Shown here one piece after another: positions 38,237-40,896 of a stretch of 64,000 bases of DNA. This DNA comes from an uncultured Acidobacteriota bacterium (lineage in GTDB: Bacteria > Acidobacteriota > Thermoanaerobaculia > UBA5066 > Gp7-AA6). Position numbers and translations under genes: made by a program. How positions within the stretch are numbered: position 1 is the first letter of the stretch; every line of letters begins with the position of its first letter. The stretch is taken from assembly GCA_963723535.1 (NCBI GenBank), contig CAVRRE010000012.1, positions 178 to 64,177 on the forward strand, written 5' to 3'. The notes under the pieces were generated by a model that ran no database searches, was not told where the DNA came from, and saw only the letters and a program-made list of their open reading frames with translations.

Positions 38237-38368
38237 GCGACGAGTATCGCACGGAGGGTGAATCGCCGGCACGCGCTCCCGGAGGATGAGCTCGACATCG
38301 CCGAGTCCGGAGACCCCCGAACACCACGGTGGCACGCCGCCGCGGCGGCGGGGGCCTCCAGAACGACT

Positions 38369-38605
38369 TCAGTCTTTGCCGGTCACGGCATCGGCGACGT
38401 CCCCCGCGACATCCACGGCGCCGTCGACAGCGCCCTTGCCCACGTTCGCCGCGGTCTTCCCGGCCGCGCTCGCGGCATCGGCCGTCGCGCCGGCCACCGC
38501 ACTGGCGGCGTCCGCCGTCGCACCGGCCGCGGCTTTCGCCGCACCACCCACCGCATCGCCCACGTCACTCGCGACTTTCTTCGTCCCTTCCCACAGGTCG
38601 GCCAT
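38369..38605 (-). CDS. small (78 aa) Ala/Gly/Asp-rich low-complexity protein with an internal tandem duplication
   Basis: GGAG lies 7-10 nt upstream of the ATG. The sequence MADLWEGTKKVASDVGDAVGGAAKAAAGATADAASAVAGATADAASAAGKTA... contains ATADAASA(V/A)AG twice. A GC palindrome follows the stop. I recognise no family. Confidence 0.45.
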   Translation of the reverse strand: MADLWEGTKKVASDVGDAVGGAAKAAAGATADAASAVAGATADAASAAGKTAANVGKGAVDGAVDVAGDVADAVTGKD

Positions 38606-38860
38606 AAACGCTCCATCTCTCCAAAGGGACCGAGCGGACTGCCCGGTCGAGAAAAAGACTGGTTGAGCTCAGGCAGACGCGCGCGGAGGATCTCGGGCGT
38701 GGCCGGGGCGCGGCGATATCCACCAACACCGTCGGGACCTCGAGCCGGCACAACCGCGGATCCACACCGGTCACCTCGAATCGCTTCGCGGTCGAAACCC
38801 GAGCTTCGACTGATATCACGAACTCACCACAGCGAGCAGACTTTCTGGGAGCCGTGAGAA

Positions 38861-38887
38861 TTGGCGGCCCCGGCGGGACTCGAAGCC
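38861..38887 (-). other. orphan copy of a tRNA 3' end (T-loop, acceptor 3' strand and CCA); candidate att-type direct repeat of tRNA-Glu
   Basis: The plus strand TTGGCGGCCCCGGCGGGACTCGAAGCC here compares with TTGGCGGCCCCAACGGGACTCGAACCC at 40520-40546, the 3' end of the intact tRNA-Glu. About 24 of 26 positions are identical in the same orientation. No 5' half or anticodon arm is present. Confidence 0.6.
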
Positions 38888-39001
38888 TCGCGCCCGCAAG
38901 CGATGTCAGTAGACTCAAGGCGATTCGCCAGAACAAAGTCAGGGAGGCAAAAGGACAGAGGCACTCGGCCATTCGGTTCGCAAGATTTGGAGGGACATCT
39001 C

Positions 39002-39460
39002 ATGCTCTACGGCATGATCGTCAAGACGAGAATCCGACAGGCCTTCGACCACGTGAACAACCATCGCTGGGATGAGCTGATGAAATCAATCACCCCGGAT
39101 GTCCATCACCGCTTTGGGGGCGCCCATGCGATTGGTGGTGAGCGCCATGACAGAGACACTTTGCGCCTCTGGTTTGAGCGCCTCGCGCGCGTCCTGCCCA
39201 GTCTCCATCTCAAGATCAACAACATCTGGGTCAAAGGCTGGCCGTGGCATACCATGGTGTTTGTGCAGTGGGACGGGACCGCAACGCTGCTGAACGGCGA
39301 CGCCTCCTACTTCAATCGTGGTCTTCATGTGATCACCCTGCGGTGGGGCAAGATCTCCAGGCTCGATGTCTTTGAAGATTCGCAAGAAGTCGCCCGTGGG
39401 CTTGCCGCCCAAGCGGCAGCTGGCCTCGACGAGGCTGTCGCCGCACAAATTGTGAGCTAG
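39002..39460 (+). CDS. SnoaL-like / NTF2-fold protein
   Basis: GGAGGGA precedes the ATG at 39002. The sequence MLYGMIVKTRIRQAFDHVNNHRWDELMKSITPDVHHRFGG... is typical of the NTF2-like fold. G+C is visibly lower than the flanks. The track ORF 38861..39460 starts too far upstream, inside the tRNA fragment. Confidence 0.65.
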   Translation: MLYGMIVKTRIRQAFDHVNNHRWDELMKSITPDVHHRFGGAHAIGGERHDRDTLRLWFERLARVLPSLHLKINNIWVKGWPWHTMVFVQWDGTATLLNGDASYFNRGLHVITLRWGKISRLDVFEDSQEVARGLAAQAAAGLDEAVAAQIVS

Positions 39461-39539
39461 CAGAAGCGGCGCCAGAGGCCCATCGCAGCGCTCCCCGTAG
39501 GGCGCGAGGGCGTTGGATCCCTTGGAAGGGAGACTGAGG

Positions 39540-40433
39540 ATGACCTTCACCAAAATCACCACCGCGGGGGCCGGCACCATGGGCTCACAAGTCGCCTGGC
39601 AGATGGCCTTTCACGGCAAGCACGTGACCGTGTACGACGCCATCCCCGCGGGCCTGGAGAAGGGCCAGGCGTTTCATCGGGAGTACGCGGAGCACTTCTT
39701 GAAGCAGCGGGGCGCCACCCGGAAGCAAATCGATGACACCTTCGCTCGCCTCACGTACACCACCGACCTGGCGGCGGCGGTGCGCGATGCCGATCTGATC
39801 AGCGAGTCCGTGCCCGAGTCCCTGCCCATCAAGGAATCCTTCTGGCGCGAGGCGTCGAGGCACGCCCCGGCGCGCACGGTGTTCACCACCAACACCTCCA
39901 CCCTGCCGCCGAGCGCGTTGGCGGGCTTCGTCGACCGGCCGCAGAATTTCCTGGCCTTGCACTTCGCCATCGGCGTTTGGGACTCCAACATCGGCGAGGT
40001 CATGGGCCATCCCGGCACCGACCCCGACGTGTTCGAGCGCCTGCTGAAGTTCGCCGAGGAAATCGGCCTGGTGCCCATCCCCATTCGCAAGGAGCAGAAC
40101 GGCTACATCATCAACAGCCTGCTCGTGCCCTGGTGCACCGCCGCGCTGGACCTGCTGGTGCGCGGCGTGAGCGACTTCCAGAGCATCGATCGGACCTGGA
40201 TGATCACCCTGCAGACGGGCATGGGCCCCTGCGGCATGATGGATCGCATGGGCCTCGGTGTCGTGTACCACGTCGCGAAGCTCATCGGCGAAACCACCCC
40301 AAACACCCAGGCACTCGAGTCCGCTCGATACCTCGACGAGCACTTCATCCAGAAGGGCCGCCTTGGGGTCGCCAGCGGCCAGGGCTTCTACAGCTACCCC
40401 AATCCGGCCTTCGCCCAGCCGGGCTTCATCTGA
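39540..40433 (+). CDS. 3-hydroxyacyl-CoA (3-hydroxybutyryl-CoA) dehydrogenase family protein
   Basis: The sequence MTFTKITTAGAGTMGSQVAWQMAFHGKHVTVYD contains the NAD-binding GxGxxG motif, followed by SESVPE.L.IK...NTS.L and the C-terminal dimerisation domain. The ATG is at 39540, whereas the track starts at 39513. Confidence 0.85.
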   Translation: MTFTKITTAGAGTMGSQVAWQMAFHGKHVTVYDAIPAGLEKGQAFHREYAEHFLKQRGATRKQIDDTFARLTYTTDLAAAVRDADLISESVPESLPIKESFWREASRHAPARTVFTTNTSTLPPSALAGFVDRPQNFLALHFAIGVWDSNIGEVMGHPGTDPDVFERLLKFAEEIGLVPIPIRKEQNGYIINSLLVPWCTAALDLLVRGVSDFQSIDRTWMITLQTGMGPCGMMDRMGLGVVYHVAKLIGETTPNTQALESARYLDEHFIQKGRLGVASGQGFYSYPNPAFAQPGFI

Positions 40434-40520
40434 ACCAGTTGGCTCAAAGGGCGCGAGGCAGAAGACCCCGCTCCGAAAACGGCGGAAGGCGAATCGCTGC
40501 TGAGTCCAGCTGGAGAAAGT

Positions 40521-40595
40521 TGGCGGCCCCAACGGGACTCGAACCCGTGCCGCGGCCTTGAAAGAGCCGTGTCCTAACCTCTAGACGATGGGGCC
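40521..40595 (-). tRNA. tRNA-Glu (anticodon UUC), CCA encoded
   Basis: The reverse complement folds as acceptor GGCCCCA/UGGGGCC, D stem GUCU/GGAC, anticodon arm CGGCU-CUUUCAA-GGCCG, 4-nt variable loop, T arm ACGGG-UUCGAGU-CCCGU, discriminator G and CCA (75 nt). Confidence 0.92.
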
Positions 40596-40896
40596 GAGTG
40601 CGACGAGGAAAATAGCACGCGACACTGCGGACTCGAACCCGTGCCGCGGCCTCGGGGGGTTCGGGGGGCCGCAAGGCCCCCGCTCAAAGGAGCCAGCCGT
40701 CTTCGGCCGCGAAGCGGCCGTGTCCTAACCTCTAGACGATGGGGCCGAGCGCGACGCAGGAAAATAGCACGCGACACTGCGGACTCGAACCCGTGCCGCG
40801 GCCTCGGGGGTTCGGGGGCCGCAAGGCCCCCGCTCAAAGGAGCCAGCCGACTTCGGCCGCGCAGCGGCCGTGTCCTGACCTCTGGACGATGGGGCC
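40596..40896 (-). repeat. two tandem ~150-nt units derived from the tRNA-Glu gene plus its upstream spacer; each has a 64-nt hairpin-rich block in place of the anticodon loop and lacks the acceptor 3' strand
   Basis: The units are 40596-40746 and 40747-40896. On the minus strand each reads GGCCCCATCGTC(T/C)AGAGGT(T/C)AGGACACGGCC [GCT(T/G)CGCGGCCGAAG(A/T)CGGCTGGCTCCTTTGAGCGGGGGCCTTGCGGCCCCC(C)GAACCCCC(C)GA] GGCCGCGGCACGGGTTCGAGTCC GCAGTGTCGCGTGCTATTTTCCT.... Outside the bracket the sequence is identical to tRNA-Glu up to the T-loop and then diverges. Confidence 0.8.

Follow-up and report, generated by a model that had tools for sequence, protein, structure and literature searches.

Genomic islands integrated into tDNA are described in Islander, where an integrase filter is applied (PMC4383910). 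In tRNA-proximal islands, elements integrate and decay, so that cargo is left stranded together with broken integrases and pieces of tRNA (PMC4383910; bioRxiv 10.1101/2020.12.28.424599). The tRNA-proximal flexible islands of Prochlorococcus are shaped by tycheposons and contain scattered partial tRNAs and degraded integrases (bioRxiv 10.1101/2020.12.28.424599). The subject of this report is a small islet next to the tRNA-Glu(UUC) gene of an uncultured soil Acidobacteriota bacterium, at positions 38861-40595 of a 64,000-nucleotide stretch of contig CAVRRE010000012.1 (the window). Two genes, for a SnoaL/NTF2-like protein and a 3-hydroxyacyl-CoA dehydrogenase (HCDH), lie between the intact tRNA and an orphan copy of its 3′ end. 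A sequence-only reading had taken the repeat for the scar of this cargo's own integration. The locus is an ordinary tRNA-linked flexible islet, a hot spot of a known kind, and agrees with what has been published on tRNA-proximal flexible islands. The repeat, judged from the relatives, seems to be older than the genes beside it.

Like the islands of Islander, the locus has foreign genes bracketed by an intact tRNA and an equally oriented 3′ fragment cognate to it, and relatives carry empty sites. Unlike them, it has no integrase and would fail the integrase filter; its fragment is short (27 nt), has three mismatches and has a positional counterpart in species with other cargo. With the tycheposon islands of Prochlorococcus it shares a tRNA hot spot with variability highest near the tRNA, partial tRNAs, degraded integrases, and stranded cargo that varies between close relatives. 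It differs from them in host (soil Acidobacteriota), in scale (0.3-4 kb), in that no replication-module genes are seen, and in that its partial-tRNA repeats have a palindrome and a GC hairpin in addition. The islet contains neither the recombinase nor the replication module of a tycheposon-type element, and only the island-level pattern is in common. An islet in another species of the same genus (G009) uses the same tRNA-Glu(UUC), on the same side and with the same repeat orientation. Unlike that islet, the one described here lacks a tyrosine recombinase gene at the tRNA and a perfect ~45-nt repeat.

The direct repeat at tRNA-Glu

The source assembly (G000) is a metagenome-assembled genome (MAG) of 4.03 Mb and 69% GC in 18 contigs, 66% complete and with indel errors. 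It has 51 tRNA genes; tRNA-Glu(UUC) was located with ARAGORN and Rfam (RF00005). The tRNA-Glu locus was extracted from 22 congeners, and 44 genus genomes were searched for homologs. The orphan fragment, TTGGCGGCCCCGGCGGGACTCGAAGCC (38861-38887), differs from the tRNA gene's 3′ end (40520-40546) by 3 mismatches in 27 positions. The copies are 1.66 kb apart in the same orientation; shuffled sequences give 0 matches, and the 4.03-Mb genome has no other site within 4 mismatches of the fragment. The features of the locus are the following.

38256-38819, no strand: older accessory segment of the flexible region, including a 78-aa open reading frame (ORF); homology only in G022 and G064
38820-38860, minus strand: spacer and remnant of half a palindrome, with which the array of repeat units ends against the flank, after the fragment's CCA in the tRNA sense; aligns with the post-CCA spacer and left palindrome arm of units in relatives, and with the corresponding stretch in G022 and G064
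38861-38887, minus strand: orphan 3′ end of tRNA-Glu type, covering tRNA positions ~51-77 (T-loop through CCA, and 1 nt more); 24/27 identity to 40520-40546
38888-38977, no strand: junction segment of ~56% GC; the first ~15 nt (CGCCCGCAAGCG) common to G022, the remainder without a homolog in the 44 genus genomes
39002-39460, plus strand: SnoaL_2/NTF2-like protein of 152 aa (PF12680, E=3e-12), low-GC cargo gene
39540-40433, plus strand: HCDH of 297 aa (PF02737 and PF00725; NF006143), cargo gene
40434-40458, plus strand: short tail travelling with HCDH, also found 3′ of the HCDH stop codons in L064 and L067
40459-40520, minus strand: remnant of the 5′ part of the tRNA-proximal repeat unit (spacer and degenerate palindrome), by local alignment to G022
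40521-40595, minus strand: intact tRNA-Glu(UUC) with encoded CCA (ARAGORN; Rfam RF00005, 63.8 bits), adjoining a permease gene in all congeners examined
40596-40896, minus strand: two upstream tandem units of ~150 nt each, with promoter-like GTGCTATTTT, tRNA positions 1-30, a hairpin insert and tRNA positions 38-61

The repeat of the tRNA-Glu 3′ end that the sequence-only reading had picked out is thus real and in the same orientation, at an identity of 24/27 and not 24/26. The two differences it had placed at the T-stem/acceptor junction are found there, adjacent to each other at tRNA positions 65/66, and a third mismatch lies at position 53. Its geometry of fragment, cargo and complete tRNA is also correct, the fragment lying downstream of the tRNA-Glu 3′ end. 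Among the 51 tRNA genes the fragment best matches tRNA-Glu(UUC), with 3/26 mismatches, followed by tRNA-Asp with 4/26, which comes so close because the T-loop is generic. Tested against chance, the match is unique in the genome and only one mismatch better than that to tRNA-Asp. A tRNA-Glu origin is supported by the exact GGGGCCGCCA end and by the context in relatives. The T-loop of the fragment is intact and of the GAGT variant, identical in type to that of the resident tRNA-Glu. A reading of the fragment as a full-length decayed tRNA-Glu was rejected, as its 5′ extension scored 21 against 15±3 for shuffles and 15% of random genomic 100-mers do equally well.

A hot spot shared across the genus

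The permease and tRNA-Glu(UUC) stay together in 22 of 22 congeners. The gap from the tRNA to a lipoprotein-like gene runs from 0.33 kb (G013, G012) up to 4.3 kb, and its content is species-specific. Empty sites, a check proposed with the sequence-only reading, occur in nearly pure form in G012, G013 and G025, where a gap of 0.33-0.51 kb, filled by repeat units alone, separates the lipoprotein-like gene from tRNA-Glu. The slot of G002 holds a methyltransferase-like ORF (named from sequence alone). That of G022 and G064 holds an AT3-SGNH acyltransferase and no SnoaL-HCDH pair. The AT3 gene is 97% identical between these two species (L048 5570-7621 vs G064 L122) and the flanks only 87-89%, an excess that points to recent exchange of slot content between them.

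Elements with integrases are found at the same gene. In G009 (L037 4316-7479) a small integrative islet of textbook form, ~3 kb long, has a tyrosine recombinase (Phage_integrase) ORF abutting tRNA-Glu, the rest of its cargo being of unknown kind. Its repeat is perfect, ~45 nt long from anticodon loop to 3′ end, and lies 3 kb from the tRNA. In G027 (L135 10317-10784) the neighbour of tRNA-Glu, in DNA of 58% GC, is an integrase pseudogene that shares 48% identity with the integrase of G009 and is interrupted by 7 stop codons; a 27-nt search gave no distal repeat (best 10 mismatches) in the 10.9 kb that the contig continues downstream of tRNA-Glu. These two loci make tRNA-Glu a real and repeatedly used integration target in the genus, at which elements decay. 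The sequence-only reading had pointed to the tandem units upstream of the tRNA for repeated hits; these units look like tandem duplications and not 3′ integration scars because they carry a promoter and the tRNA 5′ half. In side observations, tRNA-Glu and any units it has form a block whose orientation to the permease gene is reversed in G031, G032, G024, G005 and G013 (L033, L039, L040, L042, L049). An integrase-like ORF 46% identical to that of G009 lies beside tRNA-Gly(GCC) in G066 (L136, C2:87500-87790), which is probably another tRNA-linked islet of the genus.

About half of the congeners carry 1-3 tandem units of ~128 nt downstream of tRNA-Glu (L031, L032, L034, L038, L040, L044, L046-L050). 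The parts of a unit are a spacer, the palindrome GCCGTGTC(C)GGACACGGC, which is perfect, a GC hairpin whose variants are compensatory, and the tRNA stretch from position 38 to 76. The 3′ halves always match the resident tRNA-Glu variant, a sign of concerted evolution. Three of the units are called tRNA-Arg(CCG) by ARAGORN, calls that were discarded on account of C33, mismatched stems and a competing strong hairpin. G000 has its two units upstream of tRNA-Glu instead, with a promoter-like motif and the tRNA 5′ half; the insert is a GGGGGCC-TTGC-GGCCCCC hairpin, and one such unit each is present in G002 and G036.

Age of the repeat relative to the cargo

Measured against the emptiest relatives, the flexible region begins near 38256 and not at 38861. 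The left flank (38256-38819) is common only to G022 and G064 among the relatives, at 85-93% identity; G025, G012 and G013 lack it, and their homology to G000 stops at the lipoprotein-like gene or within it. The 78-aa ORF in this flank (38369-38605, minus strand), rich in Ala, Gly and Asp, is itself accessory and is confined to G000, G022 and G064 among the 44 genus genomes.

In the sister species G022 and G064 a decayed tRNA-Glu-derived element lies ~40-50 nt past the end of the shared flank, in the same orientation as the G000 fragment. It scores 73 and 61 against the genus unit and 43 and 41 against the tRNA, compared with ~30±5 for shuffles, and the G064 copy keeps a GGGCC-TTGC-GGCCC hairpin. 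The stretch that follows the CCA in G000, G022 and G064 aligns to the spacer and left palindrome arm of a unit and then runs into the common flank. A unit thus ends at the same flank position in species with different cargo, and so the repeat predates the cargo of G000. On the tRNA side of the islet, 60-70 nt after the CCA are homologous to the spacer and palindrome of G022 (score 39 vs shuffles 21.3±4.2, p~0.002), with poorer matches to other congeners. With a proximal unit remnant here and a unit end at the distal side, the cargo therefore sits between the remains of two units. A7 and A49 are present in every congener tRNA-Glu gene read; C65/C66 of the fragment would not pair with them, and for that reason the fragment is unlike a displaced original host end. 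The fragment would then be an older relic, rather than a scar left when the present cargo was inserted. The earlier interpretation of the 27-nt repeat is not supported on these points, namely the counterpart unit beside other cargo in G022 and G064 and a C65/C66 pair that does not look host-like.

Cargo genes and their origin

The interval between the repeat copies holds only the SnoaL_2 ORF and the HCDH ORF (3HCDH_N and 3HCDH), both on the plus strand and thus opposite to the tRNA, as had been read from the sequence. The SnoaL protein matches PF12680 with 47.5 bits (gathering cut-off 27), and no NCBIfam name was obtained for it. HCDH is a full-length match to NF006143 (PRK08293) at 342.6 bits, against a curated cut-off of 312, and carries both the NAD-binding and the C-terminal domain (PF02737 and PF00725). 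A sigma-70 promoter scan of 38.6-41.1 kb found no promoter.

The islet as a whole has 62.8% GC, the 2nd percentile of 1.6-kb windows of the G000 genome. GC at third codon positions (GC3) was compared with a periodicity-selected ORF set, the longest ORFs of G000 being affected by frame breaks of the assembly. Lower G+C had been ascribed to both genes. This is true of the SnoaL gene, with 58.6% GC (0.2-0.6th percentile) and a GC3 of 0.72 (~5th percentile). It is not true of HCDH, which is ordinary at 65.4% GC (12th percentile) and a GC3 of 0.906 (~75th percentile). The low-GC signal of the islet comes from the SnoaL gene and the spacer upstream of it (56% GC).

Neither gene is present at the tRNA-Glu locus of any of the 22 congeners, with or without the repeat. 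The pair occurs in G015 at 93-94% nucleotide identity (SnoaL 93%), in a locus that has no tRNA and is syntenic with contig C6 of G000. This locus was considered as a reverse empty site and set aside, as its counterpart in G000 (C6, ~279-287 kb) is occupied by different genes over 6.4 kb. HCDH without SnoaL is found in G022, where it is frameshifted, and in G023; other congeners have only ~30% paralogs. The G022 copy (L063, C6:208721-209613) is split over three frames, either as a pseudogene or through long-read indel errors. Beside the G023 copy, a block with an extracytoplasmic function (ECF) sigma gene and a Ser/Thr kinase gene (L062 311-3097) is 92.5% identical in nucleotides to G000 C10:41557-44358, the end of contig C10; the permeases of the two species are only 69% identical in amino acids.

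Outside the genus, HCDH was followed through 45 loci with up to 97% amino acid and 96% nucleotide identity and flanks of 52-70% GC. Copies of 81-97% amino acid identity stand in unrelated contexts in MAGs labelled Acidobacteriota and Actinomycetota, and the protein tree mixes the two labels with strong support. Homology stops within ~10-25 nt of the ORF, and when 25 copies are compared, their downstream flanks have no more than ~25-35 nt in common. The closest copy (96% nucleotide identity; L064, contig CAVVYL010000027.1) has flanks of 59% GC and an Acidimicrobiia label. It adjoins a sigma-54 activator gene, which is unexpected for Actinomycetota, and may have been mislabelled. Soil metagenomes commonly contain SnoaL homologs of 63-88% identity, with HCDH nearby in only 3 of 80 loci. 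On this distribution, SnoaL and HCDH are foreign, horizontally acquired accessory cargo, and the foreign origin claimed for them is borne out by their absence from the locus in all 22 congeners and by the HCDH copies of 81-97% identity in other lineages.

Neither integrase nor tRNA-Glu association was found in the 45 HCDH loci or the 80 SnoaL metagenome loci. The SnoaL loci have no tRNA of any kind nearby, and the tRNAs near HCDH loci (9 of 45) are at about the chance level. No donor with the pair in a tRNA-Glu slot was found among the 44 genus genomes. The G000 genome has 7 PF00589 matches, none of them near tRNA-Glu, and the 100-nt and 87-nt non-coding ends of the islet contain no integrase remnant. 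A weak Phage_integrase remnant was seen elsewhere in this genome (C2:72916-73032), ~140 nt from tRNA-Pro(CGG) at C2:73173-73249. A decayed element that has lost its integrase, as the sequence-only reading proposed, thus finds no backing in the form of an integrase remnant, an attP, a vehicle or an integrase-linked copy of the cargo, and the genome-wide search suggested along with it gave only integrases located elsewhere and no attP.

Formation of the islet

The explanation that we hold to be rather more probable than its rivals treats 38.26-40.52 kb as the flexible region in a hot spot that occurs genus-wide on the downstream side of tRNA-Glu(UUC). Small tyrosine-recombinase elements would integrate repeatedly and site-specifically into the 3′ part of tRNA-Glu. 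Their integrases would then be lost and the elements eroded, leaving partial-tRNA repeats, elaborated to the ~128-nt units, with cargo stranded between. The 27-nt orphan would belong to the most distal unit, an old one, as its 3′ end, and SnoaL and HCDH would have been inserted later, between the proximal (40459-40520) and distal (38861-38887) unit remains. We infer integrases as the builders of the repeat array from the islets of G009 and G027. The cargo itself could have entered by integration followed by integrase loss, with a younger repeat, or by recombination across units or flanks.

Several observations weigh against this explanation. The units hold a palindrome and a hairpin, which are absent from ordinary att scars, and their cargo-free tandem arrays may come from duplication and not from integration. 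The G000 fragment has an intact T-loop of the GAGT variant of its own tRNA, whereas its counterparts in G022 and G064 are badly decayed, so that it could be of later date or a product of gene conversion. Over the 40 nt outside the fragment, the alignment with G022 and G064 is only weak. Finally, neither the G000 genome nor the 45 HCDH and 80 SnoaL loci yielded an integrase, an attP or an integrase-linked copy tied to this cargo.

Another account dispenses with integrases; we see it as possible but a good deal less probable. The units would arise by tandem duplication or template switching, the cargo would enter by homologous recombination between conserved flanks or units once related DNA had been taken up, or by illegitimate insertion into a unit, and the fragment would be the leftover of a split or eroded unit. 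Cargo-free unit arrays with 3′ halves in concert with the resident tRNA in many congeners agree with this, as do the duplication signature of the upstream units (promoter and 5′ half) and the exchange of AT3 cargo between G022 and G064 within conserved flanks. The homology of HCDH and SnoaL, which stops at the gene borders in dozens of unrelated contexts free of mobile-element genes, agrees as well. However, islets with an integrase or with a decaying one occur at exactly this tRNA-Glu, and the 44 genus genomes offer no donor with the pair in the slot.

In its strict form the sequence-only reading posits a single event, in which a SnoaL-HCDH element inserted into the tRNA-Glu 3′ end, made the 27-nt repeat and lost its integrase by deletion. 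This is unlikely. The geometry is correct with all parts in one orientation, the cargo is foreign, the fragment has the GAGT T-loop variant of the G000 tRNA, and G009 displays the process at the same tRNA-Glu. Yet the G009 repeat is perfect over ~45 nt and the present one has 3 mismatches in 27 nt, its C65/C66 cannot stem from the original host end given A7 and A49 in all congener tRNA-Glu genes read, and at the same place in the flank G022 and G064 show the 3′ end of a unit next to other cargo. Unit remnants on both sides of the cargo, non-coding ends with no integrase remnant, and cargo that is never integrase-linked in the loci examined elsewhere add to the difficulty.

A further thought, to which we give little credence, is that the units are not passive scars but serve for recombination, as sites of a platform of cassette type by which single genes or gene pairs are captured and swapped next to tRNA-Glu, with SnoaL-HCDH and AT3 interchangeable. 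The locus is like an integron cassette array in that its cargo, small, gene-sized and poor in promoters, is exchanged within a fixed slot between structured repeats. Unlike such arrays, it has no IntI nearby and its repeats are derived from a tRNA. Neither ORF end has a 55-140-nt imperfect inverted repeat of the attC kind (no dedicated attC model was run), and a candidate GTTGGAT at 39512 was dropped for want of a partner R'' site.

An assembly artefact, with the islet misjoined to the tRNA-Glu locus via sequence shared by co-occurring soil genomes, is very improbable: the MAG has many frame breaks and other soil genomes have copies of its HCDH at 91-96% identity, but the 1.6-kb insert has host-specific sequence on both sides within one contig, unit remnants at both junctions and neighbours syntenic with congeners on either side.

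Significance

The hot spot beside tRNA-Glu(UUC) is a clear small-scale case, in an uncultured genus of soil Acidobacteriota, of tRNA-linked hot spots gaining and exchanging single accessory genes. It also teaches that a partial-tRNA repeat beside cargo need not date or explain that cargo. Two of its components may merit more attention than the islet itself: an HCDH gene in circulation, at 81-97% identity, between soil genomes that bear different phylum labels, and the structured units derived from tRNA-Glu, a family that extends across the genus.

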